Source of the DNA: Escherichia phage RB43
Reading direction: 5' to 3' (one strand)
Sequence record: NC_007023.1
DNA: 64,000 nt
Below the pieces are notes generated by a model. It did not search any database, was not told the DNA's origin, and saw nothing but the letters and a program-made list of their open reading frames with translations. Made by a program: the position numbers and the translations under genes. Position 1 is the stretch's first letter. The number at the start of each line of letters is the position of its first letter. Positions 5,755 to 51,300 of this stretch are shown piece after piece.

Positions 5755-7974
5755 TTACAGTTTAACTTCTTTTTCTTCCAGAACGATTTCGCAATCGAAT
5801 GTTGCACCTTCCCAGAATTTATGCGGGATAATGTCAGTCGCTTTAACCGATACTTTGGTTTCTTCAAAATCCAGATCCGCAAACCAGGCGTGGCCTACAA
5901 CGATACCATACATTACACGGCTCAGGCGCTTGTTCAGTGCGCGTACTTCGTTGATGGTTGCCTTTGTTTCTTTATCAAGGTACTCGATTACCTTATCCTT
6001 GTCAAGCGCTGCGAGTTCAGCTTTAACAGAATCGTAAGCCCACAGGATGATCAGGTCGCCGTTGTTCAGTTTCTTCTTACCTTCGGCACGTTTCGCAACG
6101 GTTGCCGCTACAGCAGGAAGGGAGGAAACACCCTTGATTTTCAGATTCAGTTCTTTCGACATATAAACATCAGTCGAATCGGTACTGGTTACTTTCGGGG
6201 AGAATCCATAATCACGAATACCCTGTTCAGATAACCATTCACCAGCGGCTTCACCGTATTTCTGTTTCAGACCTTCGGCATTACGTAAACCGATCGCGTC
6301 GTCACGGAAGAACTTCATCACCTTCTGGCGACCTTTCAGGATTTCCAGACGGATAGAGTCGTTTACATACTCTTTACCGGAGATCCCGCGAGTCATCGCA
6401 CGGTTAACCAGGGGCAGACTGGTAAAGTCAACCAGTACCGACATGCGGTCTTCACCGATTTTTGCCAGCGGCTTGATAGTCAAACCAGAAGCGCGAAGGT
6501 TTTTCAGTGTCGGAATATCAGTTTCCAGCGGCAGAACCTTAACGTTTACGATACCGTCTTTAACGATGGTAAAGTTACGTACCTGCTTAGTTTCGATCTG
6601 TTCAGGCAGTTTCAGTTCTTTCTGTTTGCTTTCTGGGATAGTTACGTAACCCATCAGATCCGTGTTAATGGAAATGTTAGGACGTGAACTGTTACCGACC
6701 AGGTGCTTAACCGATACTTTGGTTGTAGTCTGGGTAAATTTCGGTGTCCAGATTTCATGCGTTACCATTTGCGCCGCAAGTGCTTTGCGTTCTTCCGGTG
6801 TTTTCGCGTTTGCAATCTGTTCAGACAGTTGATCCAGAGTATCATCTTCTTTCTGTACCGTCTGACGGCCTGTGCGGTTGTACGCCCAGTGTTCAGAGGA
6901 CAGGTCGATCACAGTGTCGGTTTCTGCCAGCAGTTCGAGAGCGTCAACCAGAGTGAACGCGTTTTCGTCTGGAACCATGTTGTAATCAACACCATCGAGC
7001 AGACGTTTAGCCGGATCAACTACCGCTTCCGCGATCAGGTCTTTCGCGTTGGAATAGTCCTGTTTGGTAAAGCAGTTATCATACGCCTTAATCAGACGAA
7101 CATCACCCAGCTTTTTCAGCACTTTCCATGCAAGGTCAGGGTTCATTGTGTGTAGCGCATGATACAGCACGACATACAGAACCTGTTCACCTTCCAGAGT
7201 AGCCGGATCGAAACCGTCGATGTCGTTGATTGCGTTATCACCCAGCGCCCAGATGTTTTTGATGTGCTCAGGAACCAGAACAACACCGTTTGCAGCGTTC
7301 AGGACATACACACGCCCTTCGTCCAGGTAGATAGCATGGGTTGCGTCAGCAACTTTAACTTCGACGCGAGCGGAGGTTTGCGCGGTGATGATTTCAGCAA
7401 ATGCTGGCTCGTATGCGTCGAAACCTTCAACGAATTTATGCAATGCGTTGGTTGCTTCTGCCATTTTTTCCAGCAGAGGACGGTTAACATAATAGCCGTA
7501 TTCCAGGAATGCAATGCTGTTAAACGTCAGCGGGAGAACCGCACACGCTTTCAGGATGTCATCGGTACGCCAGCAGTTATCATAACCATCAGTCAGGAAG
7601 ATCAGGCTGTTCAGGTTGCCGTTTTCGGATTGCAGGTCGGTTGCGATTTCAGCAGCCAGATTCAGTGGTTCAACAAAACCAGTACAACCAGTAGGTTTCA
7701 GATAACGGTCGATCGCGGTACAGATATTGGTCAGATCCGATACGTTGCTAACCTTCTCACCACGGAACACAGTACCGTAATCGCCTTTGCTGGAGAAGTA
7801 CAGGATCGAAACGGTGTCATCCTGTTTAACCAGACTCGCCAGGTTTGCTTTCAGGTGCTTACGGATCTTCGGCAGTTCGTTATACATTGAACCGGAAACG
7901 TCGCAAACGAAAACGTGGTTGGTCGGAGTCGGCTTAGATACTGCGTTTTTGAATTCGATATTTGTAATTGACAT
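5755..7974 (-). CDS. von Willebrand factor A (vWA) domain protein, 739 aa
   Basis: N-terminal MIDAS motif VFVCDVSGSM (DxSxS) and downstream IFLTDGYDN; long C-terminal region of unknown function. Confidence 0.8.
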   Translation of the reverse strand: MSITNIEFKNAVSKPTPTNHVFVCDVSGSMYNELPKIRKHLKANLASLVKQDDTVSILYFSSKGDYGTVFRGEKVSNVSDLTNICTAIDRYLKPTGCTGFVEPLNLAAEIATDLQSENGNLNSLIFLTDGYDNCWRTDDILKACAVLPLTFNSIAFLEYGYYVNRPLLEKMAEATNALHKFVEGFDAYEPAFAEIITAQTSARVEVKVADATHAIYLDEGRVYVLNAANGVVLVPEHIKNIWALGDNAINDIDGFDPATLEGEQVLYVVLYHALHTMNPDLAWKVLKKLGDVRLIKAYDNCFTKQDYSNAKDLIAEAVVDPAKRLLDGVDYNMVPDENAFTLVDALELLAETDTVIDLSSEHWAYNRTGRQTVQKEDDTLDQLSEQIANAKTPEERKALAAQMVTHEIWTPKFTQTTTKVSVKHLVGNSSRPNISINTDLMGYVTIPESKQKELKLPEQIETKQVRNFTIVKDGIVNVKVLPLETDIPTLKNLRASGLTIKPLAKIGEDRMSVLVDFTSLPLVNRAMTRGISGKEYVNDSIRLEILKGRQKVMKFFRDDAIGLRNAEGLKQKYGEAAGEWLSEQGIRDYGFSPKVTSTDSTDVYMSKELNLKIKGVSSLPAVAATVAKRAEGKKKLNNGDLIILWAYDSVKAELAALDKDKVIEYLDKETKATINEVRALNKRLSRVMYGIVVGHAWFADLDFEETKVSVKATDIIPHKFWEGATFDCEIVLEEKEVKL

Positions 7975-7984
7975 TTAGTTTTTC

Positions 7985-8221
7985 TCAGTATTTGGATTTG
8001 GTTGTTTTGTGTACATTTAAAATGCTTTGGATTTTTTCGGAAATCGTTTGCTGGTCTGGTTCACATCCCAACTTACCGCCAATCGCCTTGTAAAAATCTT
8101 CAACAGAGCTTACGTTGAAATCCGGCATATGGAAACCTAACGAGTACATATGCGGATTGTGGAATTCGTAAACATCCACATTGTATTCGTTAAGATCGAA
8201 ACGTTCAAGATATTTCTTCAA
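7985..8221 (-). CDS. hypothetical protein (78 aa)
   Basis: ORF in operon context. Confidence 0.45.
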   Translation of the reverse strand: MKKYLERFDLNEYNVDVYEFHNPHMYSLGFHMPDFNVSSVEDFYKAIGGKLGCEPDQQTISEKIQSILNVHKTTKSKY

Positions 8222-8361
8222 AGAAAATAAATCGAACGGTAATGGGAGGTGCTGTTCAATCGTTACAGGTTCCCCCAGCTTGTGCGCTTTCAGGGGTTGC
8301 CCCTTTCGCGTATGTCAGTTCTGTTTTCATCAGTGGTGACTCTTTTGATGTATATTCAAGG

Positions 8362-9887: not shown

Positions 9888-10358
9888 TCAGTTTCGTTTC
9901 GATAAAGTTAAGGTATCACTGTTCTTACGAAGATGCAAACACTTTTTTGAAGAATTTGTTTCCGGTCTTTCTTTGTATGGGCGCATGGTCAACCGCTTAC
10001 CGTCCAATACTGTTGGTTTTCCATCCAGTTCAATCAGGATAAAGTTGCCTTTGCGATACTTCAACACGCCCTGGCTTGCCGACCATTCATCGTTATCCCA
10101 GTGGTTGTAATGCCATTCAACAACGGTATCGATTGGTATTTCTGGTTGATTTCTCATATTTGCTTTCCTTCGTTCTGATGCTTCTTTCAATTGTCGTATT
10201 TGTGGTATCAACTGTTGTGGTGGAACAGTATCTTCCCGTTTCAATGCCTTTCGAACTTGATCAACAAACCATTCGTATTTCGGACGGCGGTTAAGTTCTT
10301 CCCTTAGTCGGGCATTCTCTTGTTCGGCAATGCTTGCGCGTTTTCTGTAATCGGTCAT
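9888..10358 (-). CDS. hypothetical protein (156 aa), translationally coupled to methyltransferase
   Basis: 4-nt overlap with dcm-like gene. Confidence 0.45.
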   Translation of the reverse strand: MTDYRKRASIAEQENARLREELNRRPKYEWFVDQVRKALKREDTVPPQQLIPQIRQLKEASERRKANMRNQPEIPIDTVVEWHYNHWDNDEWSASQGVLKYRKGNFILIELDGKPTVLDGKRLTMRPYKERPETNSSKKCLHLRKNSDTLTLSKRN

Positions 10359-11263
10359 AGAACTTTCCTTATCTGTTTGGCTATTGCCTCGATAACTGGC
10401 ACGGAAACGGAGTTACCCGCTTGCTTGTATGCTTGTTTTTTACTCGATGGAATAATAAACGAATCTGGGAAGCCCTGCAAGCGAAAACATTCACGCGGGG
10501 TTAATCGTCGTGGGTTCTTCCCATCCTGTAACACCAGACACTGAACGCCGTCCTTGTAGTATTGCGCTGTGATGGTTCCTGTGTGCGTAGAATCGGCTGT
10601 GACGGCCTGATAACCAAACCCCTTACCGTTTGCCTTATTTCGTTCCTTACGCTCTCTAAAGCCTTTCCACGCGTTATCTGATAGGGTGTACGAATCATCA
10701 ACATCTTCGAGGATATCACCTACGCGCGTAGGGGTGCGCGGGGGAACCGGAAACGAAAAGAATACATCATCCAGGAAGCAGACAATAAACACACGTTCAC
10801 GTCGCTGGGGTAATCCGAAATCTTTCGTATTCAGTCGTTGATAGAATACGTTGTATCCTTCGGCCTCCAGAAGCCCGTAAATCGTTTTAAACGTCTTTCC
10901 CTTGTCATGGGTTAGCAATTCAGGCACATTCTCAAAGAACAGCACACGGGGCTTTTTAGCGCGTATAATGCGGAGGATTTCAAAGAACACCGTACCGCGA
11001 ACATCATCGAAGCCCAGTTTTAATCCGGCTTTACTGAATGCCTGACACGGGAACCCAGCCAACAGGATATCGTGATCAGGTACTTTGTTTTCATCAATGG
11101 CGAACAAGTCACCTTCGAGATTATCACCGCCCCAGTTAGCGGCGTATGTTTGCTGTGCGAATTTGTCGATCTCAGCAGTAAGCACACATTCAACACCGTC
11201 AAATGCGCGATCAAAGCCCATACGAACGCCACCAACGCCAGCGCATAAATCAATCAGTTTCAT
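10355..11263 (-). CDS. DNA (cytosine-5)-methyltransferase, Dcm-like
   Basis: C5-MTase motifs: LCAGVGG (I), GFPCQAFS (IV), ENV (VI), QRRERVFIV (VIII), QGFPDSF. Confidence 0.9.
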   Translation of the reverse strand: MKLIDLCAGVGGVRMGFDRAFDGVECVLTAEIDKFAQQTYAANWGGDNLEGDLFAIDENKVPDHDILLAGFPCQAFSKAGLKLGFDDVRGTVFFEILRIIRAKKPRVLFFENVPELLTHDKGKTFKTIYGLLEAEGYNVFYQRLNTKDFGLPQRRERVFIVCFLDDVFFSFPVPPRTPTRVGDILEDVDDSYTLSDNAWKGFRERKERNKANGKGFGYQAVTADSTHTGTITAQYYKDGVQCLVLQDGKNPRRLTPRECFRLQGFPDSFIIPSSKKQAYKQAGNSVSVPVIEAIAKQIRKVL

Positions 11264-11290
11264 AAATATACCTAAAAAGAGGGTAATAAC

Positions 11291-11992
11291 ATGCTAATAT
11301 CAGCAAGCAGTGTAGACGAATTGAACAGCAAGGTCAACGAAATGCTGTCACAAGGGATGTACTTATGGGGAAGCCCGTTCGTTGTCCCATCCGATTATCT
11401 GAACCAAACACGATTCTTTCAACAGGTTTCAAACGTAAATCCTTCGAGCGGCGGAACCGATGGAAAGAGTGCGTATCAACTATGGGTTGAACAACCAGGC
11501 AATGAAGGGAAAACACTAGATGATTTCTTTGATTCCATTGCAGGGGTTCGCAAAAAATCAGAGGTGTTCTGGACGGGGCTTAGTCTGGTGATCCCAGAGG
11601 ATACGCCGACCAACTTCATCAACCTGATTAAAGGGACCATTCCGACTACCGGAACATTAGAACCGTTCTTCAAAATTACAGACAATAAGTTACACCCGTT
11701 TAACGAAAACTCAACATTAACGTTTAAGCTGAACCTGAAAGGTACTTTCACAGGGGCAACAACCGCACAGCGTAGCGTTACACTTGATTTTGTCGGTACA
11801 CAGGGCAACACCCTCACTCTGAACCGCAGCCAATCGGTAACTACTAGCACCCTTTCTTTCGTCACGTTCTTTAGTGTCGATAAAAACGGAAATATGGTTA
11901 CTAATGGTACTGCATTCAACATTTTCGCAAACGGTAGCCCGTTTACTGTATCCGAAGTTCTTTTAGTCGCCGAACAGCGTACTACTCAATAA
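11291..11992 (+). CDS. putative virion/tail-fiber-like protein (Thr/Asn-rich, GKSAYQLW motif), opposite strand to surrounding early genes
   Basis: 233 aa; GGTDGKSAYQLWVEQ resembles fibre-protein motif; RBS AGAGGG; near-consensus late promoter upstream; bidirectional terminator downstream. Confidence 0.5.
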   Translation: MLISASSVDELNSKVNEMLSQGMYLWGSPFVVPSDYLNQTRFFQQVSNVNPSSGGTDGKSAYQLWVEQPGNEGKTLDDFFDSIAGVRKKSEVFWTGLSLVIPEDTPTNFINLIKGTIPTTGTLEPFFKITDNKLHPFNENSTLTFKLNLKGTFTGATTAQRSVTLDFVGTQGNTLTLNRSQSVTTSTLSFVTFFSVDKNGNMVTNGTAFNIFANGSPFTVSEVLLVAEQRTTQ

Positions 11993-11993
11993 C

Positions 11994-12019
11994 AAAAAAG
12001 CCCCGAAAGGGGCTTTTCT
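11994..12019. terminator. bidirectional rho-independent terminator
   Basis: aaaaagccccGAAAggggcttttc. Confidence 0.6.
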
Positions 12020-12253
12020 TTATGCTTCAAAATCAATTTCGTCGATCTTGTAAGACTCTTCATCGATATCAGCCCACAGAGTGACTTTAACCGTTTTACG
12101 GTCTTCGTACATGTCACGACCATCATAGCCGCCCGTGTACTCGCTGTGCGTCTGTTCATCCACTTCTAAACGCAGACTATCGCGCATGATTGGACAACAG
12201 CCTGTCCAGCGTAACAGAATCTGGGTGCTGTTCTGTGCCACCAACTCGAACAT
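12020..12253 (-). CDS. hypothetical protein (77 aa)
   Basis: ORF. Confidence 0.4.
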   Translation of the reverse strand: MFELVAQNSTQILLRWTGCCPIMRDSLRLEVDEQTHSEYTGGYDGRDMYEDRKTVKVTLWADIDEESYKIDEIDFEA

Positions 12254-12280
12254 CTTTCAGGTGTAAAATAATATCGCTCA

Positions 12281-12559
12281 TTAGTAGAACTTTCCATATG
12301 TGTTGAAATTGATACTTTCGTGGTTACGTTCATTGATCGTGATTTCATAATCGTAATCTTCATTAGTAACCGCGCGGTCGTGTTTGATAACGTTCACGTC
12401 ATAAACGCGGGATAACGCATGATACAAAGAATCACGGATCTTTTCAGCAATCTTCGCGGGTTCGCTATACATATTGAGCATATCAGCAACAATACCTTCT
12501 ACTCGCTGAATATCTCGCTGTTCGATGTATCCTACGTACAGGCTTACGTCTTTAATCAT
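12281..12559 (-). CDS. hypothetical protein (92 aa)
   Basis: ORF coupled to upstream nucleotidyltransferase. Confidence 0.45.
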   Translation of the reverse strand: MIKDVSLYVGYIEQRDIQRVEGIVADMLNMYSEPAKIAEKIRDSLYHALSRVYDVNVIKHDRAVTNEDYDYEITINERNHESINFNTYGKFY

Positions 12560-13554
12560 TTGTAATACCCCAGAACATGATCTTTGTATACCTGTTCGAT
12601 AAAGTCATTCCAGAATTCCCGATCGACTTCTTTCGGATAGGTAGAGATTGCAGCAAGGCGTTCAACTTCGCCCATCACTTCCTCCAGTTTTTCCTGTACT
12701 TCGGCAAACGGGACATTACCAGCTTTAACCGATTTCAACAGGTCACTCTCAGGAAGAGGGTACACGATATCGCCGTGTTTGTAAATCTGTACTAACTGCA
12801 TACCACCGCGCAATGCGTGACTTAATGCTTTCCAATCGATCCCGTTGTTGGCTTCTGCTTGTCGTGCGCGTTCGCCATATTCATCCCAGAGCTTGTACAC
12901 GGATTTCTTCATTTCCGCTACGGTGATCGTGAACTGGAATTTACGACCCAATACTTCATAGAAATTCTGCATACCGCCTTTTTCGCTATAATGCAAAATA
13001 GAACGACAGAATTCATTGGTCGGTAGTTGGTCTTTGATGTCGCCAACTTTGATGTTTTCTATTGCATCACCCAGATTGGAAGGCATACGCACAACGCGAG
13101 TATTTGGGGTGTCTTGTAACACGTCATACACTTCACGCAGTGCAGCCAGGCGAGAACCTTTCACACCATATTTCGCGGCTTGCTTACGGACATAACCGAA
13201 CAGGCCAGTTAACTCCGTAGTGTAGAAACGCCAACGGTTAGCGCGGATATACTGCCAGATTTCAGAGTTAGCGATCAGCTTGCTATCATCAGCATGAAGC
13301 ATATCGAGCGCTACGGTATCACCATCACACGCAAGGCTGATGAACTTAGGCAGACTATACAACTGACGGTCTACGTCATCAACGGTGTTTTTAGAGTTCT
13401 TATCGCCCGTGCTCGTGTCGATAGTCTTCGGGGCTTTACCTAGCAAGATATCGCGTGGATGCGGGAGGAAGATCCCTTTATAATCTTTGTCGCTTGTCGG
13501 GGTGTTCAGCCCGTACAGGTGAGAACCGAACACAGTTTCCATTACAATTTTCAC
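12556..13554 (-). CDS. Pol-beta superfamily nucleotidyltransferase (function unknown)
   Basis: 332 aa; N-terminal VFGSHLYGLNTPTSDKDYKGIF (hG[GS]...DxD) plus later VALDM acidic residue. Confidence 0.6.
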   Translation of the reverse strand: MKIVMETVFGSHLYGLNTPTSDKDYKGIFLPHPRDILLGKAPKTIDTSTGDKNSKNTVDDVDRQLYSLPKFISLACDGDTVALDMLHADDSKLIANSEIWQYIRANRWRFYTTELTGLFGYVRKQAAKYGVKGSRLAALREVYDVLQDTPNTRVVRMPSNLGDAIENIKVGDIKDQLPTNEFCRSILHYSEKGGMQNFYEVLGRKFQFTITVAEMKKSVYKLWDEYGERARQAEANNGIDWKALSHALRGGMQLVQIYKHGDIVYPLPESDLLKSVKAGNVPFAEVQEKLEEVMGEVERLAAISTYPKEVDREFWNDFIEQVYKDHVLGYYK

Positions 13555-13943
13555 AATTCAACTCCCAGAGTTTTTGCAATTTCTTTCAATTGGTCAGTTG
13601 TGATATCAGGAACAGTCACACCGTAACTATGTCCAAACACGTATTTGATCTTAGCGGATAATTCCTCGCGATACAACTTTTCTTTGTACGCCTCTTCGCT
13701 GCGATAAACCTTAATACCGTTCCAATCGTTAGAACTTCCGGTTTTGCGGTCCAGCTTTTCGACGCAATATGATTTAAGATCTGTTTCTGTAGGGTTAGGC
13801 GATGCGTACAGATACTGACGCGCAACCTTATGAACATACAGAATACGCGGTTTTACACGGCAACGGTTATCATATCCACGTTCACCAGGATCATATAAGG
13901 TATCGCCTACTTTAACATCTGTTAAACTCATTTCATTTTCCAA
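13551..13943 (-). CDS. hypothetical protein (130 aa)
   Basis: ORF; 4-nt overlap with NTase start. Confidence 0.5.
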   Translation of the reverse strand: MENEMSLTDVKVGDTLYDPGERGYDNRCRVKPRILYVHKVARQYLYASPNPTETDLKSYCVEKLDRKTGSSNDWNGIKVYRSEEAYKEKLYREELSAKIKYVFGHSYGVTVPDITTDQLKEIAKTLGVEL

Positions 13944-14179
13944 CGTTTTGTTTTATCACAATAGAATACTGGCAATTTGGACAGGACAGGAGTCACCACA
14001 TCTTCACCAGTTTTCGTGTTATGCGTCATTTCGATTGTCAGCGAACGACCAGGCACGGGTTTCACAATATCCAGTTCCATGATCTCCCGATTACCTTTTG
14101 TGTTGATTTCTGCAACATAGTAATCGTTCCCGTTGATGTTAACAACATCACCCATAATTACGCTTCTGCTGTGTTTCAT
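13928..14179 (-). CDS. hypothetical protein (83 aa)
   Basis: ORF. Confidence 0.45.
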   Translation of the reverse strand: MKHSRSVIMGDVVNINGNDYYVAEINTKGNREIMELDIVKPVPGRSLTIEMTHNTKTGEDVVTPVLSKLPVFYCDKTKRWKMK

Positions 14180-14565
14180 TTGTTAATAAACCTTAACGTA
14201 ACGTGCAGGGATTCTAACACTCGTGCGTCAGTACCGTCAATAATCATCATTCCGATAAATTCTTTAGAGCTAACGGAATACATGCGACATAACAGGGAAC
14301 CATCTTTCGCGATATATTCAACGATATACTCACGGCGTGATGATTTGAACGAATCACCGACCATGACCGGACGTTCGACATTCTGGCGTTTTTTGGCTGT
14401 ATAACACAACTCGTTTTCGCCGTTTGGTGCGCAATCTTTACTTCCGATCGACATATCCGTTACAGTAACAGAATTCACAGAACCGCCGATCAGTAAGCTG
14501 GGTTCGCCAGCACCTACTTTCATGATTAGTGTCGAACGGTTTGCAACGGTTTCAGTCACAAACAC
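14176..14565 (-). CDS. hypothetical protein (129 aa, GTG start; possible upstream extension)
   Basis: ORF; 32-aa upstream ORF in another frame suggests possible frameshift. Confidence 0.4.
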   Translation of the reverse strand: MFVTETVANRSTLIMKVGAGEPSLLIGGSVNSVTVTDMSIGSKDCAPNGENELCYTAKKRQNVERPVMVGDSFKSSRREYIVEYIAKDGSLLCRMYSVSSKEFIGMMIIDGTDARVLESLHVTLRFINK

Positions 14566-14716
14566 GTAGCACTGTGGATTCGTTTTCTTTGGCGATTGAC
14601 TGCAAAATGAATTTGGTCTTCTCAGGCGTTCTCGAATGTCCGATTTAAAACACGATCACCGATCGTCAATGTTGTGGTTGAATCGACATCTTCGGTAGTA
14701 CGAATAATTGCTGTTT

Positions 14717-14986
14717 TCATGATAATTTCCTCTCAAATTCTTCATCAGATTTCCAGTACACGTTAAAGTTACGGCAATCGTGATCAGAAGTCAACGTATA
14801 TTTTTCATTTGTTTTTTCATCGGTGATAACCATCGTTTCATTCTCGATCGAGTCAACACCGTACACAAACACTTTGTCACCGCGTTTATTCAGGAACGCA
14901 TCACCTGTTTCAATCAACTGCCAGCAACTAACTGGCAACCCGCCCGAACAGATCGGACGGTTTACTAAACAGTAAGGATGTTTCAT
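14717..14986 (-). CDS. hypothetical protein (89 aa)
   Basis: ORF. Confidence 0.45.
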   Translation of the reverse strand: MKHPYCLVNRPICSGGLPVSCWQLIETGDAFLNKRGDKVFVYGVDSIENETMVITDEKTNEKYTLTSDHDCRNFNVYWKSDEEFERKLS

Positions 14987-15171
14987 TAATCAGCAAGCCT
15001 TATATTGTTCGGATCGGGAACGAAAGTATCCTTTTGAGTAACCATAAACACCAGGAAAGTAGCGATTTCAGGATCATCAATCACGTTGAATTTACGCTTA
15101 CCTTTCCAACGCACAGCGAGTTTGCCATTGTCCAGTTTCTTGATTGCTGCGACTTCTGATTTCGTAGTCAT
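14986..15171 (-). CDS. small hypothetical protein (61 aa)
   Basis: Start at ATG 15169-15171 after RBS AGGAGA; ORF-track N-terminal extension would read through the promoter element. Confidence 0.4.
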   Translation of the reverse strand: MTTKSEVAAIKKLDNGKLAVRWKGKRKFNVIDDPEIATFLVFMVTQKDTFVPDPNNIRLAD

Positions 15172-15240
15172 GATTATCTCCTTTCGTTTCAGTACCCCTA
15201 ATATAACAAAAGCCCTACACGAATGCAAGGGCTTTTTCAA
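15172..15240 (-). promoter_or_regulatory. PeSL-like element B (TTGCAT-17-TATATT with hairpin AGCCCT...AGGGCT)
   Basis: -35 at 15223-15228, -10 at 15200-15205 (minus strand). Confidence 0.55.
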
Positions 15241-15333
15241 CTTATCGACAGAAAGGACAACTAAAAGAGTCGCCGCTTCCACCATGTTTACGACACGCCG
15301 ATTTCTCGATCGGTGTCATTGTTAAAATTTTCA

Positions 15334-16392
15334 TTAGATACCTGTAAATGCTACGACAATCTGATAGTGGTCATCGAAGAATTCCCCTTGTCGTTGTACG
15401 ACCTCATGTAAGGGCATCCAGAACGCGTCTAACGCATCGTCAGAACCGCCCATAATACGTGGTAAACTTCCATCATTGTTAGGTTCTAACTTGATGTATT
15501 GCGCCACAGTCGGTTTTGAGAAGTGTACAGAACGCTTCGGATGATCGAACAGCATCGAATTGCGGATTGAACCACGAATAACCTTTTCAGGAACCTTGAT
15601 CCGAACCTCTTCGAGCAGTTCGCGGATCGCACAATCCAGGAACGTTTCATTTGCGTTTTTGTGTCCACCTGGCAGGGCTAGTGCGCCTTTTCCTGGTGCA
15701 AACTTACGACGAATTACCAGCAGGTGATTGTTGCACACAACCACGTTATCACCCGTGCAGCAGTTTAGCGCTTCTGGGTATGGGTAATTTTTGAATTTCT
15801 CCAATTCACTTTCCCATTTTTCGAATTCGTAGTACAGTCGCCAAAATGTATCCGTCATCATCCATGAATTGATATAACTCACAGTAGACGGAGGAACATA
15901 ACGAGATAGTTTCTTGTCCCATCCATTCTTATGCAAAAAGGATGGTTGGTCGTAAATCGGTCGCAGATAAATCTTCCCATCAACCTTAACCGGATCTACC
16001 GGAACATGAGTCCATCCAAACGCTTTCAGCCAGTATGAATCAGCATCTTTTTCGTAACCATAGATCGCGATGTTATCGCCTTTGGTTTCGTTGATTGCTG
16101 TACGAACAGAAGTTTTCCATTTTTCTTCGTTGTAAAGATAATCAGGAATATGAGCAAACTTAACACGACAAACATCTTCGTATTTGTATTCAGTCATCAG
16201 CCACGAAAAGATCATTCTTTCGCGTTCGTTCGCGGTCAGAGGATTTAAAACGTTGGGGTATGCGTAGGCAGAACCCAGGAGGATGTAAACGGTCTCCGAC
16301 TCTTCCAGTGCTTTACGCACCATCGCCGCATGACCATTATGGAAAGGTTGGAATCTGCCAATCACGACAGCTTTATCAAATTTGTGTTTCAT
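15334..16392 (-). CDS. bifunctional nicotinamide-mononucleotide adenylyltransferase / Nudix hydrolase (NadM/NatV-like)
   Basis: GRFQPFHNGH (HxGH nucleotidyltransferase motif) plus Nudix box GGHKNANETFLDCAIRELLEEV; start likely ATG 16390-16392 with GGAG RBS. Confidence 0.85.
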   Translation of the reverse strand: MKHKFDKAVVIGRFQPFHNGHAAMVRKALEESETVYILLGSAYAYPNVLNPLTANERERMIFSWLMTEYKYEDVCRVKFAHIPDYLYNEEKWKTSVRTAINETKGDNIAIYGYEKDADSYWLKAFGWTHVPVDPVKVDGKIYLRPIYDQPSFLHKNGWDKKLSRYVPPSTVSYINSWMMTDTFWRLYYEFEKWESELEKFKNYPYPEALNCCTGDNVVVCNNHLLVIRRKFAPGKGALALPGGHKNANETFLDCAIRELLEEVRIKVPEKVIRGSIRNSMLFDHPKRSVHFSKPTVAQYIKLEPNNDGSLPRIMGGSDDALDAFWMPLHEVVQRQGEFFDDHYQIVVAFTGI

Positions 16393-16417
16393 AACGTGCT
16401 CCACGTTTAAAGGGTAA

Positions 16418-16515
16418 TCATAAAACAGACGCAATAATCAATACACCAAGCAAACCGCCAATAAAGCCGAAGAATGACGAAATGAAGATAGACAATATAA
16501 TCTGTTTTATGTTCA
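16418..16515 (-). CDS. possible 32-aa hydrophobic peptide
   Basis: Short ORF MNIKQIILSIFISSFFGFIGGLLGVLIIASVL with weak RBS. Confidence 0.25.
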
Positions 16516-19711: not shown

Positions 19712-20200
19712 GATAAATCTACCGTTTTCATGTTAACGTAGGGATCGAAATGTACCACGATGATTGGATAGTCGCCAGTGGCCTTATCAATGATGTCATA
19801 GATGCGCATCCAATCGCCCCCAGCAAGCCCCGCACCAATAAGAGGGGTAACGATAGGCAATTGAACAGGACACGCCTTAGCGCGTTCTACAGCAGATTTG
19901 AAGCATGATTCAATCGCATCATAATCGACTTGTGGGCCTTCACCCCAAAATTTGTATTGGGTGTACGCGTTAAACAGAAGTTTGTTTCCGTCCTGATAAA
20001 CGGAGTTACGCCCCAACTTAGATTGATTGCCCTTCATCGTCATTGCGTCTTCTTTAAACGCACCAGGGATCTTTTTCTTCACTTCTTTGGCGATACCCGC
20101 GCCCATGTTACCAGAAACCAGTTACCACCCCATGAATTAGGTGTACATCGCGATTAAGGAACAGTTCAACCGCGTTACCTTTGATTTCTTTAATGATCAT
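19708..20200 (-). CDS. macro-domain (ADP-ribose-binding/processing) protein, apparent frameshift near 20107-20120
   Basis: Upstream frame MIIKEIKGNAVELFLNRDVHLIHGV... joins MGAGIAKEV..., reconstructing an HGxN(C)xxxMGAGIA macro-like N-terminus. Confidence 0.45.
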
Positions 20201-44258: not shown

Positions 44259-46331
44259 ATGATCATGGATTATGAATCAATAATTGATGGTATTATGCAA
44301 GATTTTCAGCATCCGTGTGATGCTGAAATACCTGCTGGATCGTACAGGCGTATTATCTGGCAGGGACACACAGAAGATTACCCCGCTGTTGGGGTAGAAT
44401 GGGATACAGAAATCATTCCGATCGGGACGCATCTTTACACGCAATCCCCGTTTGGACAGAAAAGCGATCCGCTTCCGGTTGTCAACTCCCCAGGTACAGA
44501 TCCGGGTACTGGGGAAGCAACAGGGATTCTCGTTGCTAAAATTGGTTATTATTTCGCTACTCAACAAGAAATTGATGACTATATCACCTCTATCGGGGCT
44601 ACTAAGCTCGCAGGTAATGATTGGTATGGTGCGGATCTGACAAAAGCGAACCTGTTCAAAAACCCAGGCGAACTTGCAATGTACAAGGTCGAGAACTCAG
44701 GCGGTTATCTACTGACTTCTGGCCCACAATGCGATCAGCGTATCAGACAGGCGTATAATAGCGACACAGGCGCGTTTACAAGCGTTGATTACTATTGGAA
44801 TGGTAATCGTATTGCCTACATGAAACATGACGACACAGGGGCGCACAATTGCAAATACGTGGGTATGGTGGTTAACACCAACGCAGACACAAGCATTCCC
44901 CCTGTACCTCCGGCTATGCCGTCAATTTACGGGGCATTGCCTAGCGAAATTTCAATGATGCGCTCCGGTTTGGGTTGTCTTCCTGCAACGGTAGGTTTTG
45001 CGTACACGAATATCAGTGATGCAATGCTATCCGCATGGAACGAAACGCGCAAGTCGTTTAAGCTCGTGTTTGATATGCTTACGGGTATCACTAAAACGGG
45101 TTCCGGTGGTATCTCCACGATGTACGATGGTTTGTCTATCGCAATGGAGGAAATCACAGCGGGTGCTCTTGCGTTGTCACAGCAAGCATGGCAAGCCGCA
45201 ATTAAGGTGTTCAAAGATATTATGTCTTCTGCGTTAAACATCGTAGGTGGTGCGTGGAACATGATAATGAGTTTTTTACCAACTGTTACGATTCTGGGTG
45301 TTTCAATAAACATCTATGATCTGATTTTCGGTGATAACTCAGTGCAGACACTGAAAGATTCATTCCAGGCGATCATTGATGCTGGTACAGAAACCTATGA
45401 GAACGTCATAAACGCAATATACAGCGCTATAGGCAGTGCATACAATTATACCGTTGAATATGTCAAGGCTGGCGCTCGCGACCTCGTGGATGCTTGCAGT
45501 ACGCTTTTTGACTGGTGTATTACCATGTTTCAAAATGGTTGTGTTGCTCTGGTGGATCTGTATGGGCGAATAATGCAAATCTGGGCTATGCCTCCAACGG
45601 TTCCAAACCCTTTATGGGCTGCTGTTCTGGCTATCCGTAACATTATGATGCAGATCAAGCCGCTTGATGTGATCCTGGGTGGAAACTTCCCTGGGTTTAC
45701 GGCAATGGATTTGTACCAAATGGCACAGGAGAAGGTGAAAGAGTTTATCGATCAGTCGTATGCGCAAATACGCGTGTATTATGAACAGGTGAAGGATCTG
45801 ACTAGCACGTTGACTACACAGACACAAGAAAGGGATGCGATTAAACGCAAGTTCGATCAATACCTTAACTGGATGTGGGGCGCTGTTACAGATGCTGCTA
45901 CCGCTGCATATCAGGCTGCATTAGATGCTGCAAACGAGGCAATCGAGCAAACCAAAGCGCTTATCGCTGGCGTTAAAGCACAGATAGCCGCTCTACAGGA
46001 CGCGATGAAAGATACGTACAGCCTTGCGATGGAAGAACTTAAAAAACTTCCTTTGATGCAGCAGATTAATGAATTCTTAGGCTTCTGTGGGATTGCTTTT
46101 GATGATCTGCTGAAAACCTATGATAACGCGGTTACTGGGGCGAAATCATTATATAAAAACTTTGTTGACAGTTCCCGATCGTTTAAGGATACATGCAAAG
46201 TCATATATAACCAGATATGCACACTTGCTCTAAGTAAGGTGACTCAATACGTGAATAAACTGTTGTCTTTAATCGGACTCGCGATCACTTTTGCGTCAAT
46301 TAATATCTGCGTCCCTATGATTCAACTATAA
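44259..46331 (+). CDS. large hypothetical protein (690 aa) between gp5 and gp6; hydrophobic helices and coiled coil
   Basis: Starts 3 nt after gp5 stop; beta-rich N-terminus, central and C-terminal hydrophobic helices; occupies the slot I recall holding T4 5.1-5.4. Confidence 0.7.
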   Translation: MIMDYESIIDGIMQDFQHPCDAEIPAGSYRRIIWQGHTEDYPAVGVEWDTEIIPIGTHLYTQSPFGQKSDPLPVVNSPGTDPGTGEATGILVAKIGYYFATQQEIDDYITSIGATKLAGNDWYGADLTKANLFKNPGELAMYKVENSGGYLLTSGPQCDQRIRQAYNSDTGAFTSVDYYWNGNRIAYMKHDDTGAHNCKYVGMVVNTNADTSIPPVPPAMPSIYGALPSEISMMRSGLGCLPATVGFAYTNISDAMLSAWNETRKSFKLVFDMLTGITKTGSGGISTMYDGLSIAMEEITAGALALSQQAWQAAIKVFKDIMSSALNIVGGAWNMIMSFLPTVTILGVSINIYDLIFGDNSVQTLKDSFQAIIDAGTETYENVINAIYSAIGSAYNYTVEYVKAGARDLVDACSTLFDWCITMFQNGCVALVDLYGRIMQIWAMPPTVPNPLWAAVLAIRNIMMQIKPLDVILGGNFPGFTAMDLYQMAQEKVKEFIDQSYAQIRVYYEQVKDLTSTLTTQTQERDAIKRKFDQYLNWMWGAVTDAATAAYQAALDAANEAIEQTKALIAGVKAQIAALQDAMKDTYSLAMEELKKLPLMQQINEFLGFCGIAFDDLLKTYDNAVTGAKSLYKNFVDSSRSFKDTCKVIYNQICTLALSKVTQYVNKLLSLIGLAITFASINICVPMIQL

Positions 46332-46333
46332 AT
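46326..46333 (+). promoter_or_regulatory. T4-type late promoter (TATAAATA) for gp6
   Basis: Exact TATAAATA followed by RBS AAGAGGGG and ATG 46355. Confidence 0.6.
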
Positions 46334-46354
46334 ACCCGATAAAGAGGGGTAATA

Positions 46355-48269
46355 ATGGCTACCGTAAAGAAACAAATTAATCAGATCCCCGATATTTTTG
46401 TCGGGGCTACTTTTGATGAAATCAAATCGGAGTTTGATTAACTGGCTCCGAGGTCAGGACGAATTCAAAGATTATGATTTCTCTGGCTCGCGTATGAACG
46501 TGCTTGTTGACCTGCTGTCTTACGCGACATTGTATATTCAACAGATGGGTAACAGTGCTCTATTCGAATCATTTATTCGAACTGCGGCGCTTCGTAGTTC
46601 TGTTGTGCAACATGCTCAGGATTTTGGTTATATGCCGGATTCCCGTACTGCTGCAAACACTTCGATTCTGATTACAGCAAATAACCCACTGAACCCAACT
46701 TCAATTCGTATTCCTCGTGGTACGAAATTCATTGGTACAGTAAAAGATACGAACAGCTTCCCGTTTGTTGTGTCTGATGACGTTGTAATCGTTCGTGATA
46801 AAGATAACAACTATGTGTCGATGCTGAATATCGTACAGGGGCGTTTGGTTCGTACCGAAGTAATCTATGATGGTTCTACTATCCTGATCCGAGATCCGAA
46901 CATTGACCGTAGTCAGGTTCGAGTGACGATCAACGGCGCACAGTGGGACGATTGGACAAACGAAAGTATCGTTAACGCAACGGGCGCAAGTACCGTTTTC
47001 TATATGCGTGAAACGGTAGACGGACATACAGAGGTTTATTTCGGTGAAGGTGAGACAAGTCAACAGGTCGCGGGTGGTGCTCTTACCGCTGACTATATCG
47101 GGGGCTTGAAACCTGCAAACGGTTCTGTCGTTGTTATTGAATACATTTCAACCAACGGCGAAGAAGCAAACGGTGCTGAAAACTTTGTTTACGTGGATAC
47201 GTTGACAAACATCAGCATTACAAGTATTGTTGAGAACCCGACCAACTCTGCTGATTATGTCGGTGCTGATGGTGGTGGTGAACCGGAAGACATTGAACGA
47301 ATTCGAGAATTAGCCCCGATCATGCGTGAAACGCAGCGTCGTTGTGTTACTGCATCGGATTACGAATCATTCCTGTCGCATCGTTTCGGCTCTGTGATTC
47401 AGGCGGTTCAGTGCTTTACCGATAGTGAAAAACCTGGATATGCGTTCATCGCGGTTAAACCGAAATCAGGGTTGCGCCTAACCTCAGTACAGAAAGAGGA
47501 TATGCAAAACTATCTGGCTAAGTATAACCTTGCGACAATTACGCCGTCGATTCTCGACCCTAACTATCTGTATATCGTACAAAGCATTAAAGTCACGTAT
47601 GATATCAGTAAGTTAATCGAGTCAGAAGAATGGCTACGTGGTCAGGTTATCAATGAAATTGACAAGTATTACACTGATAACGTTGAAATTTTCAACAGAT
47701 CATTCAGTAAATCGAAGATGTTGACTTATGTCGATAACGCTGATGTGTCAATCATTGGTTCCTCTGCGACGATTAGCCTGTTGCGTGAACTGGATAACTA
47801 TTACAGTGCGCCGATGTCTGGTATTCACTTCTTAAACCAGGTTGCGTCAAGATCTGTTATTTCTAACGGGTTCAAATATACCAACGCAGATGATGATTCA
47901 TATGATGTGCGCTATGCGTCAACTGATATGGATACATCGACCGGACGTGCTAAGATTGTAATTGGCCCGTTTAAAGATGGTGATATTGCGATAACTCCGT
48001 ATGCTGGTAACGATTTTGATAAATACCCAGGGGTGACAGACAGAACGAAATACTATGAGGTTGGCTATATCGAACATTATAGCGATTTCATCAGCTTCGA
48101 TCTGGGTGTGCTTAACGTCCCAGCAGAACGCTTTAGCGCTGCATATATCGAACTGACTGCAAAACCATTGGAAGAAACCATTTTTACTCGTGATGGTTCT
48201 CTGATTGTATTTGAAAATGACCTTCGTCCTCAGTATACCACGCTGACGATGAATCCAATCAGTCAATAA
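46355..48269 (+). CDS. 6: baseplate wedge subunit gp6 (one-base frameshift near 46430)
   Basis: N-terminus ...IPDIFVGATFDEIKS in one frame, continues ...LINWLRGQDEFKDYDFSGSR... in next; matches recalled T4 gp6; C-terminus FTRDGSLIVFENDLRPQY. Confidence 0.85.
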
Positions 48270-48347: not shown

Positions 48348-51300
48348 ATGATTAAAGCGCCATCAATTACCAGTTTGCGCGTTGATAAACTGGCTGCTAA
48401 CTTCGTTTATTTGAAGTGGGATAGCGTCGGCATGGATTTTTACTATGTCGTAGAAATGGCTGAAACTCGCGGCGCGGGTGGTGCAGTGATTCCAGATGCG
48501 GATTTAACATGGTTTCAGTTAGGCTATGCTTATGCGAACGAATGGTTCTCTACTGCTGTGCAGCCTAATAGCTTCTATAAATTCCGTATTAAGGTTACGC
48601 ATCAGGGCTTTGAACCGTCTGATTGGGTTTACAGTGATGAACTCTGGACATTCACTCTCAACGCCTACGCATATTCAACCATGCGAGAATTTACACCGAG
48701 TGACGCATTTATAAACGAAAAATTCGCTAAAAACAATCAGAACTATGTGAACTTTAACAATGATGTGATCATGGCAGCGCTGATGAAAGAAGACTTTGTT
48801 TTCTCTCCGCTGTATACGGACGTATCCCAGATCAGTGATAAAATTCTTACTCAGGAAAACTATCACGAGATACAGGATCATATTGAACACGTTTGTAATG
48901 ACATTAACAGAACGTTTCTGGTTGCGTCAAATGGTTTGTTATACCTGTTCGAACGTTTTCAGAACATGGCTAAGGTATCCAATGACAAGGGCCAAACATG
49001 GCATTACTACAAAGCGTTTAACGACCGCGTAGGAAACCCTGTAGCGCGTTCTATCGCGTACCAAAGCACAAACACAACTTACGTATTGGGTTACGATCGT
49101 ATCTTCTACGGGCGCACCTCAACGGATATTCGCTGGTCTGCTGACGATGTGCGATTCTCTGCTGACGATATCACCTTTACAAAACTGGGGAACCAGACAG
49201 GGTTAGATTTTGATGTTGACTCATACAATACCTTTGCAAAACTTCCTGGTGATGTATCGAAATATGCAGAAGCAATGGCATGTTCCGACGATTGGCTTTA
49301 TGTTGCAGCGAAAAACATAGTTCGTCGTATTGCTCTGAAACAAACACCGATCGACACCGATCCGAGTTCTCCAACTTTTGGGGAAAAGATTTTCGACGAA
49401 ACAAGCTATACCATTGTTCCAGGCAATGATAAAATTGTTGTTAAGAAAATGGATGTGATGGACAGCAAACTTTACGTGCTCGTTACAGGCGAAGTTAAAG
49501 TTGCTCTGCAAGATCCAACAAAACCGGAAAACGTAGTTCCTTCTGTTGATTCTGGTGTGTATCAGTGGCAAGAAGACACTAAAACCTTTGTGCGCCTGTA
49601 TGGGAACACTGAGGAAGAACGTTTCTTCATTGAACATGAATACACCAATATGTCAACAAACGGAAAAGAAATTTATATTTCTGTTGCCAACTACAAATAC
49701 CCAGGAACTTTGCCAGATCCTGAACTGCTGATAACTAATCCTGAATTGGTTGCTGCTGTTAAGTATGATTTGCGTCCTGGCTATACTGCTAGTCTGTCTA
49801 TCAACTTTGCTACTATTCGAGCAAATATTGATGATCCGACCGTGTGGAAATTCGGCGCACAGGAATACTACAACGAGGCAAATTATAGCTGGTTCTTCCG
49901 TGATTCTGTTCGTACATGGATCACGAATGATAACCGTCCGTTGGTTGTGTATCCGAAAATTGTATATGAAATGGTAACTGATACCGCTGGACCTTCTTCT
50001 ACGTTGCGCGTCAACAAAGAGGTGTGGGATCGTGGACATGTTACAATTTACATTAACAACATTAAATTTACCGGATTTACCAAATACACTAACGGTGTGT
50101 TGTTGTATAAAAGTTCTGGTGAAATTATCGGGTTCTTTGAACTGAGTTACCGCGCTCGTGATAGCCTTACGATTTTCTGGAAACCAGATAACACATTACT
50201 GATTGCGGATCTTATTCAGCAGGAAAGGGAACAACCTTATGTACCGGATTTGTCGCCCGGTTTGATTGATCCTGATTTAAGCCATATGATTACTCGCTTT
50301 GCACCACAAAGCTATCTGGATCAGGAATATTTCGAGAAGTTTGGTGAATATTATTTGCAGTTCGTTTCGTTGGGTGAAAACACCTACTATAACAAATTGC
50401 TGAACCTTATCAGGAACAAATATCCACGCGAGAAGAACTGTGTTGAATATTTGTGGTCGGAAGTAAACCGACGCAATATCTATCTGGATAAAACGAAGCG
50501 TGATCAAGTTGTGCGATTCTTTGAATCCCGTGCGAGTGATTTTTACTCCACGAAAGGTATCGAGGCAAGTTATAAATTCCTGTTCAAACTGCTGTACAAC
50601 GAAGACGTATCCGTAGAAATCGAGAGTTCAAACACTCTGGAATATGATATACTGGTTTCTTCGACTAACATCAGTCAGGACATTGTAGGGCGCACGATTT
50701 ATACACCAACAGCAAGAGCAAACGTGACATATATCGAACGTGATTATGAAGACGGGCAATTGCGATGGTCTATGACTCTGCATAACGTGATCGGTAACTT
50801 CCTTGAAGGACAGGTTGTTAAGTCAGAAAAGACTAATTTCACGGGTAGTATTCTGCGTGGTGTTCGTGGTAAGCAAATGGCGAACAACTCGATCGACTAT
50901 TTCAACCGTGGGCGTTCATACTACGTGATGAAAATCCGTTCAAACCTTCCGGCTTCTCGTTATAAAGATGACGTGTTGCGGTTTGTGCATCCGGTAGGTT
51001 TTGGCTTTATCGGGATCACTATGCTGACGGTGTTCATTAACTCCGGTTTGTCGATGACCCATAGTGAAACAATCATTGATATCCTCCGAAACTATCGCTT
51101 TGATAGCGGATATCCTAAGTATTGGCCCGATCGTGTTGCACGTCTTGACGGTAACGGAAACCAGACATTTGACCTTGTAACAGGTGAAGCATTATATGAA
51201 CCACACCCTAAAGCGGGGCAACCGTTCGATGTTCCACCACAATATGACATTGATGAACAACCGTTAAACGGTGTTTTGCCGTCTGCGCGTCGATTCGATC

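Follow-up and report, generated by a model that had tools for sequence, protein, structure and literature searches.

Which nucleotidyltransferase is encoded at this locus of Escherichia phage RB43, and on what might the enzyme act during infection? Within the window (the whole analyzed stretch of record NC_007023.1, 64,000 nt), the first-pass annotation had described a 332-aa protein at 12556-13554 as a Pol-beta-type nucleotidyltransferase (NTase) of unknown specificity. This protein gives a 100% match to the deposited "NrdC.11 [Escherichia phage RB43]". The gene nrdC.11 is among the few conserved genes of T4-like phages without an assigned function.

The nrdC.11 gene, its orthologues and its neighborhood

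Analysis of the sequence confirmed that the 332-codon open reading frame (ORF) is a real gene; it lies on the minus strand and has a coupled GTG start codon, so the ORF proposed initially is upheld. The features of the locus are:

13551..13943, minus strand: gene of 130 aa with a Phage_ProQ_C_like domain (PF24203, E=2e-17), translationally coupled, upstream of nrdC.11
13552..13566, minus strand: translation start of nrdC.11, with a GGGAG Shine-Dalgarno sequence (13566-13562), a 7-nt spacer and GTG (13554-13552), read from the sequence
12556..13554, including the stop codon at 12556-12558, minus strand: nrdC.11 orthologue encoding a 332-aa NTase of the RlaP family (PF10127), from the ORF list, Pfam and PHROG
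12281..12559, minus strand: gene of 92 aa (PHROG 13206), ATGA-coupled, downstream of nrdC.11
11996..12017, no strand assigned: bidirectional terminator-like hairpin AAAAGCCCC-GAAA-GGGGCTTTT, from the terminator scan

As read directly from the sequence, the GTG codon overlaps the TGA of the upstream gene (13553-13551) as GTGA, while the TGA stop codon of nrdC.11 shares an ATGA with the ATG of the downstream gene (12559-12556). An older RB43 deposit (AAX78653) gives a 328-aa product starting from an ATG at 13542-13540. The GTG start is favored over this ATG, because the pairwise alignment with T4 NrdC.11 begins at residue 1 (MKIVM versus MKTVV).

Judging from sequence comparisons, the RB43 gene is an orthologue of T4 nrdC.11 and encodes a long-form RlaP (PF10127) NTase of the Pol-beta type. 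The two proteins share 51% identity over their full length (336 aa aligned), and T4 NrdC.11 (NP_049709, "nucleotidyltransferase") has the same domain order and all of the invariant residues. PHROG 388 matches residues 1-331 of the RB43 protein (E=4e-120). The score against the Pfam RlaP model is above the gathering cutoff (48.7 bits versus 23, E=1e-12) yet modest in size, and the match falls into two stretches, the best of which covers residues 2-132. A precomputed PF10127 domain is present in 120 of 120 homologues among the matches listed. The name RlaP reportedly comes from Burroughs & Aravind 2016.

Homologues of nrdC.11 are widespread: tblastn detected them in 1669 phage records, and a HMMER search of the whole library yielded 3983 cluster representatives at E<=1e-3 (883 at E<=1e-30), nearly all of them full length. 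Already in 2006, the gene was described as conserved in six of six T4-like genomes, under the label of a COG3541 NTase (PMC1524935). The RB43 gene has been annotated since that year and adds nothing new to the catalogue; the RlaP family likewise already has a name and a proposed role, and its activity has been demonstrated since late 2025.

In both T4 and RB43, nrdC.11 lies downstream of tk.4-tk-rI-rI.-1 in a minus-strand block with the same gene order. The immediate flanks differ. In T4 these are a mobD homing endonuclease gene and nrdC.10, whereas RB43 lacks nrdC.10, carries nrdC elsewhere in the genome and has the coupled ProQ_C-like gene upstream of nrdC.11. ProQ is an RNA chaperone. The ProQ_C-like gene occurs only in 161 Pseudotevenvirus-type records, and adjoins the NTase gene where this was checked. 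It was considered as a conserved partner of nrdC.11 and rejected, as the nrdC-tk region of T4 contains no homologue of it. None of the small ORFs flanking nrdC.11 in RB43 has a T4 homologue in the nrdC-tk, cd-denA or gene 24-uvsW segments, and the ProQ_C-like neighbor is therefore regarded as lineage-specific.

The hairpin at 11996..12017 ends the minus-strand gene chain that includes nrdC.11, and a terminator is annotated at the matching place in phage Margaery. The wider surroundings of nrdC.11 consist of small phage ORFs, the ProQ_C-like gene and NadM/Nudix genes. A promoter scan was uninformative (13 promoter-like sites versus 9.3 expected); its one notable site (16542-16515) precedes the NadM gene.

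Active site and domain architecture

The protein can be divided into three regions, to which the following features were assigned (all on the minus strand):

13270..13554: N-terminal Pol-beta NTase core, residues ~1-95 (conservation, hhalign and the AF2 model)
13522-13527: G10-S11
13483-13491: D22-K23-D24
13369-13377: D60-V-D62
13303-13305: D84
12922..13269: clade-specific middle region, residues ~96-211 (AF2 secondary structure and hhalign)
residues 98-147: helices of the middle region with invariant Y121, Q125, K128-Y129-G130, G133 and R135
12934-13101: five-strand beta subdomain, residues 152-207 (AF2)
12559..12921: C-terminal helical domain, residues 212-332, with invariant Y226-G227-x-R229, D240-W-K242, H246, R249, P266 and K277-x-G279 (K242...R249 at 12808-12831)

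Conservation was assessed in an alignment of 150 sequences, comprising the RB43 protein, its T4 counterpart and 148 representatives with 36-50% identity. The Pol-beta signature recognized at first pass (GS, DxD and a third acidic residue) proved to be 95-100% conserved: G10 is retained in 150 of 150 sequences, S11 in 148, D22 and D24 in 149 each, D60 in 145, D62 in 143 (the remaining seven have E) and D84 in 145. The DKD of the active-site strand, which had been called unusual, is ordinary, since its middle position varies freely among the 150 sequences (T 43, K 22, L 17, I 14, V 12, R 11). Loss of the catalytic triad on careful alignment had been named as a possible objection to the assignment; G10-S11, D22/D24 and D62 are all retained.

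Alignment with short canonical RlaPs by hhalign covers RB43 residues 2-89 (probability 92%) and pairs GS with GSRAWG and SDxD with SDYD; D62 falls opposite the Asp of "DlnGWD" and D84 opposite the Glu of "EWL.SP", an RlaP motif. In the AF2 model, D22/D24 begin strand 23-30 and D60/D62 begin strand 61-67. As third metal ligand, D62 is more plausible than D84: in this model D62 lies on the strand neighboring that of the DxD motif, whereas D84 is placed in a helix. Given this position and its alignment to the "EWL.SP" glutamate, D84 was set aside as the third catalytic carboxylate. With its catalytic set intact, RB43 NrdC.11 is probably an active enzyme.

The middle region is kept across the clade except for a variable loop (~153-167 in the 150-sequence alignment). 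Between the collinear hhalign blocks, RB43 residues 90-222 (~133 residues) face about 29 residues of the short RlaPs. In the AF2 model (pLDDT 86.6), the NTase core is accompanied by a helical C-domain, and the last helix (312-331) is long. The C-domain aligns with that of short RlaPs as a weak hhalign block (E=0.09). The crystal structure of PfRlaP shows an NTase domain and a C-terminal helical domain whose terminal helix is packed back on the NTase domain (PMC12776372).

Fold searches in BFVD returned exclusively other phage or viral "nucleotidyltransferase" models. Among solved structures, HalB (PDB 9dbh), 3c18, kanamycin nucleotidyltransferase (KNTase) and HEPN domains are distant matches; the first three share 9-13% identity with RB43 NrdC.11 and give no sequence-profile match, and the HEPN-fold similarity is limited to the C-terminal bundle of the RB43 protein itself. 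HalB and KNTase also use other acceptors (a Tyr-primed dA chain and an aminoglycoside hydroxyl, respectively) and have different partner genes. Searches of PDB sequences, in a set without the PfRlaP coordinates, gave nothing significant with either single-protein phmmer or a 53-homologue profile; the top match, ribosomal protein S6 (E=0.6), was dismissed as chance. NCBIfam and PADLOC gave no match at all (PADLOC at E<=1), and Pfam nothing besides RlaP at E<=1.

Of the initial description, the Pol-beta fold stands. Profile searches gave no match to the CD-NTase, SMODS, MNT or KNTase families, which it had named for comparison, and the resemblance to KNTase is distant and at the level of the fold.

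RNA-repair genes in RB43 and around relatives

Activity is known for two RlaPs, those of Pseudomonas fluorescens and P. aeruginosa (PfRlaP and PaRlaP), which belong to cluster 1a of the sequence similarity network and are the only ones with biochemical and structural data. According to a 2025 preprint, they append 1-2 NMPs to RNA 3′-OH ends and then stop; Mn2+ is preferred, and neither DNA nor E. coli proteins are labelled (PMC12776372). Many cellular RNAs are extended with little NTP specificity in vitro, but a mimic of cleaved tRNA is the preferred substrate, in which the 3′ end at the nick is favored over the acceptor end (PMC12776372). The 3′-OH product suits ligases that use a 5′-phosphate, e.g. 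Rnl1 and Rnl2 (PMC12776372). In the same network, T4 NrdC.11 belongs to cluster 5, and it is described without an assigned function (PMC12776372).

The Pseudomonas RlaPs and RB43 NrdC.11 have in common the Pfam family, the GS and DxD motifs, the third Asp and the acidic residue of "EWL.SP", and both the Pseudomonas enzymes and the long-form clade are associated with RNA repair genes. However, their C-domains are only weakly alignable, and the RB43 protein is ~65 residues longer, with the extra region including the five-strand beta subdomain. As ~100 residues of NrdC.11 are clade-specific, its substrate or product could differ from those of the Pseudomonas enzymes. The genetic settings also differ: in Pseudomonas the gene is flanked by rtcB and rtcA, while RB43 encodes 5′-phosphate ligases far from nrdC.11.

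Genome-wide searches of RB43 were performed on a genome rebuilt from HE981739 pieces. RB43 encodes RnlA (E=6e-96), PseT/Pnkp (E=3e-54) and RnlB (E=7e-75), and has a single tRNA gene. There is no operon link, since rnlA-pseT lies ~30 kb and rnlB ~70 kb from nrdC.11. HMMs built from bacterial neighbors detected no short RlaP, RtcB or Hen1 in the RB43 genome.

Bacterial long forms are 28-50% identical to the RB43 protein over the full length and share its invariant residues and length class. In contrast to RB43, which has no short RlaP, these chromosomal genes are operon-linked to repair enzymes and often accompanied by a short RlaP. Full-length NrdC.11 relatives were examined at 80 loci in bacteria or archaea; 15-19 of these loci contain RtcB, Pnkp/Hen1 or T4-type RnlA plus PseT within 6 kb. 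The long-form genes of loci L041, L045, L023 and L057 lie in Pnkp/Hen1, RtcB or RnlA-PseT cassettes, with the order Hen1-Pnkp-NrdC11-RlaP in L041 and NrdC11-RnlA-PseT in L057. In phage phiN3, the homologue is located between two RNA ligases, and a survey of jumbo phages found that the distribution of RlaP mirrors that of RNA ligases (PMC7824862).

A short canonical RlaP gene immediately follows the long form in 25 of the 80 loci. Because many bacterial long forms are paired in this way, the two forms may do different jobs rather than being redundant. We found no description of tandem long-short RlaPs in the accessible literature.

Proposed function and alternatives

Orthology, family, an intact active site, the partner genes in RB43 and the repair neighborhoods of relatives are established in this analysis. 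We infer that the phage long form shares the activity of the Pseudomonas short form and has a repair role in vivo. In the reading we prefer, with a probability of roughly 60%, NrdC.11 would put back nucleotides missing from host tRNA that a nuclease has damaged, ahead of ligation. During infection, host tRNA would be cleaved by an anticodon nuclease of the host or by another ribotoxin, which may also remove a nucleotide at the cut end. Phage Pnkp (PseT) would then convert the 2′,3′-cyclic phosphate and 5′-OH into a 3′-OH and a 5′-phosphate. Using D22, D24 and D62 with a divalent metal, NrdC.11 would append 1-2 NMPs, untemplated, to the 3′-OH of the 5′ tRNA fragment, and RnlA or RnlB would seal the break, returning a fraction of the repaired tRNAs to full length. 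T4 tolerates deletion of its nrdC.11-mobD.3 block in laboratory hosts (PMC9825161), which fits an accessory role and gives no positive phenotype.

A bolder version of this proposal concerns the RloC-type "smart" anticodon nucleases. These excise the wobble nucleotide, so that repair by Pnkp and Rnl1 gives a dead tRNA. NrdC.11 might be the missing phage answer to such nucleases, its ~100-residue insert positioning the nicked anticodon loop for re-addition, and the bacterial long form might be an obligate pair with the short RlaP; we consider this combination speculative and rather doubtful.

The enzyme might instead tail RNA 3′ ends outside break repair, by mending or altering tRNA 3′-CCA, or by adding 1-2-nt tags to host or phage RNAs that alter their stability or charging. 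The generic 3′-OH extension and low NTP specificity of RlaPs in vitro (PMC12776372) would suit such a role, as would the distance of RB43 nrdC.11 from the ligase and kinase genes, the coupled upstream neighbor with its ProQ C-terminal-like domain, and the Pseudoalteromonas phage J2-1 homologue, which directly follows a gene for a tRNA nucleotidyltransferase (CCA-adding enzyme). Bacterial relatives, however, are found beside Pnkp/Hen1, RtcB or RnlA-PseT and not beside RNA decay or CCA machinery, and the Pseudomonas RlaPs favor the nick over the acceptor end (PMC12776372); we regard tailing as improbable. CCA-adding enzymes, poly(A) polymerases and terminal uridylyl transferases resemble RlaP in template-independent addition to an RNA 3′-OH by a Pol-beta fold, but RlaP, unlike class II CCA-adding and poly(A) enzymes, halts after 1-2 additions (PMC12776372). 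An assignment of the RB43 protein to the CCA-adding class, which would have spoken against the first-pass annotation, was not found: there is no Pfam match to PolyA_pol (PF01743) or PAP, Foldseek probabilities for PAP/TUTase structures are at most about 0.13, and neck, body and tail domains are absent.

Action on a protein (AMPylation of a host factor) or on a metabolite or antibiotic-like compound, in the manner of KNTase/ANT, LinB, MNT or DrrA, is very unlikely. The structural matches on which this reading would draw are low-Z and fold-level (9-13% identity), without a Pfam sequence-profile match to any of these families; the RlaPs assayed labelled RNA, and not E. coli proteins or DNA (PMC12776372); and the gene neighbors of clade members are RNA-repair enzymes. 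Neither a sequence-profile match nor a close two-domain structural match to KNTase/ANT was found. MNT proteins are ~100-140-aa single-domain NTases accompanied by a separate HEPN gene, whereas the RB43 protein has 332 aa in three regions, no PF01909 match and no adjoining HEPN gene.

A signalling or counter-signalling oligonucleotide synthase, either CD-NTase-like or HalB-like (in the latter case possibly supplying an oligo-dA decoy to hold a Hailong-type channel shut), is hardly credible: HalB shares 13% identity in a match limited to the generic NTase half, neither a match to a HalB model nor a two-gene operon with a HalA membrane partner was found, Pfam and PADLOC (E<=1) gave no SMODS/CD-NTase hit, CD-NTases are absent among the best 50-60 structural matches listed, and no HalA-like or CBASS-type effector is encoded nearby.

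RNA repair was discovered in T4, and since the description of RloC it has been asked whether phages can overcome anticodon nucleases that excise a nucleotide. The existence of tandem long and short RlaPs matters for any extrapolation from the Pseudomonas short form to the phage enzyme. If NrdC.11 does restore the excised nucleotide, the arms race of nuclease, repair, excision and re-addition would be complete.

Identity and genetic setting of nrdC.11

Positions 11000-16500 of the window match phage RB43 (Pseudotevenvirus RB43) at 99.9% identity, and the first-pass annotation was right to place nrdC.11 among early-type genes. The features distinguished in and around this region are as follows.

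10355-11263 (-), gene for a Dcm-type C-5 cytosine DNA methyltransferase (PF00145, E=6e-94), unusual among T4-like phages
11291-11992 (+), 233-aa ORF with an Sf6-type tail-needle-knob domain (PF16532, E=9e-35)
11996-12017, strong bidirectional hairpin terminator
12556-13554 (-), nrdC.11, 332 codons
13551-13943 (-), 130-aa gene with a Phage_ProQ_C_like domain (PF24203, E=2e-17)
15334-16434 (-), gene for a bifunctional NadM-type NMN adenylyltransferase and Nudix protein (ADP-ribose pyrophosphatase)
16542-16515, promoter-like site preceding the NadM/Nudix gene
19735-20109 (-), tk.4 homologue encoding a Macro domain (A1pp)

The start of nrdC.11 differs between two RB43 deposits, being GTG at 13554 (332 aa) in one and an internal ATG at 13542 (328 aa) in the other. 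The longer entry is a “protein of unknown function” in NCBI and a “Nucleotidyltransferase” in UniRef, and the shorter one is named “NrdC.11 [Escherichia phage RB43]”. We favour the GTG, since the alignment with T4 NrdC.11 (51% identity across the full length of the two proteins) begins at residue 1, a Shine-Dalgarno sequence, GGGAG, lies seven bases 5′ of this codon, and the GTG shares bases with the TGA that closes the upstream gene (GTGA). The TGA of nrdC.11 in turn overlaps the start codon (ATG) of the gene that follows; thus, with overlaps at both ends, nrdC.11 belongs to a series of translationally coupled genes on the minus strand, which ends at the hairpin terminator. The tail-needle-knob ORF stands alone among the minus-strand early-type genes and ends at the same terminator; a podovirus needle-tip domain is unexpected both at this location and in a T4-like myovirus.

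The gene coupled to nrdC.11 via GTGA, which encodes the ProQ_C-like protein, is limited to 161 phage records of the Pseudotevenvirus type and, in the records checked, adjoins the nucleotidyltransferase gene; the searched segments of T4 contained no homologue. Its product may be an RNA-binding accessory protein. The NadM/Nudix gene, probably serving NAD+ salvage, is located 1.8 kb upstream of nrdC.11 in the same strand block, and in Vibrio phage phi-Grn1 about 5 kb separate a NadM gene from the NrdC.11 homologue. Just upstream of RB43 nrdC.11, homologues of tk.4, tk, rI and rI.-1 follow the T4 order, whereas nrdC itself, unlike in T4, has moved elsewhere.

A 2006 comparison of T4-like genomes that included RB43 found nrdC.11 kept in all six and assigned it to the COG3541 nucleotidyltransferases (PMC1524935). 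The gene is present in 1669 phage records (tblastn), and an exhaustive HMMER search at E≤1e-3 returned 3983 cluster representatives, almost all of them 300-350 aa long and matching end to end.

Family assignment, conserved residues and predicted structure

The protein matches PF10127, RlaP (“RNA repair pathway DNA polymerase beta family”; 48.7 bits, cutoff 23), and, end to end, PHROG 388 “nucleotidyltransferase” (E=4e-120). Nothing else was significant in Pfam, where SMODS, NTP_transf_2 and PolyA_pol gave no match, and NCBIfam and PADLOC searches returned none. Its identity and family membership are secure. The CD-NTase and MNT leads of the first-pass annotation lack support, and the protein does not fall among CCA-adding enzymes.

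The Pol-beta fold and signature recognized earlier are present (G10-S11, D22-K23-D24, then D60, D62 and D84). An alignment of the RB43 protein, T4 NrdC.11 and 148 representatives at 36-50% identity showed 95-100% conservation of G10, S11, Y14, G15, S21, D22, D24, P31, N56, D60, D62, G78 and D84, so the catalytic triad is retained. Further conserved residues occur in the middle (W100, Y121, Q125, K128-Y129-G130, G133, R135) and C-terminal parts (Y226-G227-x-R229, D240-W-K242, H246, R249, P266, K277-x-G279). The central DxD residue varies freely (T, K, L, I, V or R), and therefore the DKD, previously considered unusual, is no peculiarity. RB43 NrdC.11 is probably an active enzyme.

An AlphaFold2 model built from 83 homologues (mean pLDDT 86.6) comprises three regions. 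In the predicted nucleotidyltransferase core (strands 2-9, 23-30, 44-48 and 61-67), G10-S11 forms the turn after the first strand, D22/D24 start the second and D60/D62 the fourth. A helical stretch with a five-strand beta subdomain (152-207) follows, and then an all-helical C-terminal domain (212-331).

Two collinear blocks emerged when the profile was compared with that of short canonical RlaPs from bacterial loci. The first (residues 2-89, 92% probability) pairs GS with GSRAWG, SDxD with SDYD, D62 with the Asp of “DlnGWD” and D84 with the Glu of “EWL.SP”. The second is weak (residues 223-327 versus 145-243, E=0.09) and places K242xxxH246xxR249 opposite KxYxYALR. Residues 90-222 face only about 29 short-form residues, which makes the NrdC.11 clade a long form, carrying about 100 residues as a net insert.

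12922-13269 (-), codons for residues about 96-211, the clade region containing the net insert and the predicted beta subdomain

Within this region Y121, Q125, K128-Y129-G130 and R135 are invariant, and no solved structure matches the region significantly.

RNA-repair genes near NrdC.11 homologues

RB43 encodes repair enzymes of the T4 type, RnlA (E=6e-96), PseT/Pnkp (3e-54) and RnlB (7e-75), as detected by tblastn, at least 30 kb from nrdC.11. It has a single tRNA gene, which implies dependence on host tRNAs. Two of these loci were placed in HE981739 coordinates:

45186-47846, rnlA and pseT in one cluster, with two small ORFs between them
49774-49850, the tRNA-Met (CAT) gene, 2 kb beyond this cluster

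In distant phages the genes next to the homologue concern RNA ends: Sinorhizobium phage phiN3 has it between two RNA ligase genes and beside a phosphohydrolase gene, and Pseudoalteromonas phage J2-1 has it immediately after a gene for a tRNA nucleotidyltransferase.

Among prokaryotes, scanned at one genome per species, 118 loci encode full-length relatives sharing 28-50% identity. Neighbouring ORFs of 80 retained loci were clustered, HMMs were built from the clusters and representatives were confirmed with Pfam. The neighbours include RtcB (9 loci), Pnkp (8), Hen1 (7), HD phosphohydrolase (6), T4-type PseT (5) and RnlA (2). An RNA ligase or end-healing enzyme is encoded within 6 kb in 15 to 19 of the 80 loci, far above chance, since a genome carries about one copy of each at most. 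Typical examples are Hen1-Pnkp-NrdC11-RlaP (L041, L045), RtcB...NrdC11-RlaP-Hen1...Pnkp (L023) and NrdC11-RnlA-PseT (L057). At L045 a tk.4-like ORF (7813-8277) follows the cassette, a hint that some RNA-repair cassettes include Macro domains.

Directly 3′ of the long form, 25 of the 80 loci carry a canonical short-form RlaP (PF10127, 218 bits), in many cases with stop/start overlap (L023, L034-L038, L040, L041, L043, L045, L050-L052, L055, L058, L069, L072, L073, L076-L079, L081, L082, L089); at L041 the long form (6001-6996) is followed by the short one (6993-7799). These pairs frequently lie inside Pnkp/Hen1 or RtcB cassettes and hint at a division of labour. The 2025 RlaP preprint (PMC12776372) does not mention the pairing; the 2016 family-naming paper was outside this comparison. 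HMMs from the bacterial neighbours detected no second (short) RlaP, RtcB or Hen1 in the RB43 genome.

A possible role in tRNA repair

Two Pseudomonas RlaPs characterized in the December 2025 preprint label RNA, but not DNA or protein, adding one or two NMPs to a 3′-OH with little NTP specificity (dATP is accepted) and a preference for Mn2+. They preferentially extend a cleaved-tRNA mimic at the nick-side 3′ end and partly restore aminoacylation of a tRNA lacking one anticodon-loop nucleotide. The authors proposed RlaP as the antidote to the “smart” ribotoxins, RloC among them, that cut and then excise a nucleotide; T4 NrdC.11 falls into a cluster of its own kind in their analysis (cluster 5), separate from these enzymes, and they describe the protein as “of unknown function” (PMC12776372). 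According to a survey of jumbo phages, RlaP distribution mirrors that of RNA ligases (PMC7824862). The first-pass description of unknown specificity is not supported; nrdC.11 is a real, already annotated gene, and its family has a name and an activity that was demonstrated recently.

On homology and gene context, we assign a probability of about 0.6 to a repair pathway in which Pnkp would heal the ends of a cut tRNA, NrdC.11 would put back one or two nucleotides at the 3′-OH of the 5′ fragment, and Rnl1 or Rnl2 would seal the break. Such chemistry would suit 5′-phosphate ligases; the RlaP authors saw no obvious fit to RtcB (PMC12776372). Caution is advised by the large insert and poorly alignable C-terminal domain of the phage form, by the absence of an operon link to repair genes in RB43 and by the division of labour at which the bacterial pairs hint. 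The T4 gene block with nrdC.11 is dispensable under laboratory conditions (PMC9825161), which counts against over-confidence.

RNA tailing in a non-repair role would share the 3′-end addition, while the ligase and end-healing neighbours of bacterial relatives point to repair; we consider it unlikely. Nucleotidylylation of a protein or small molecule, a reaction within reach of the fold, is quite improbable beside relatives that label RNA and not protein. A signalling or HalB-like oligonucleotide synthase shares the Pol-beta motif, gains nothing from the SMODS search and is the least credible reading.

The interest that remains lies only in a possible action of the phage enzyme against anticodon nucleases that excise a nucleotide, and in the bacterial pairing of long and short RlaPs.
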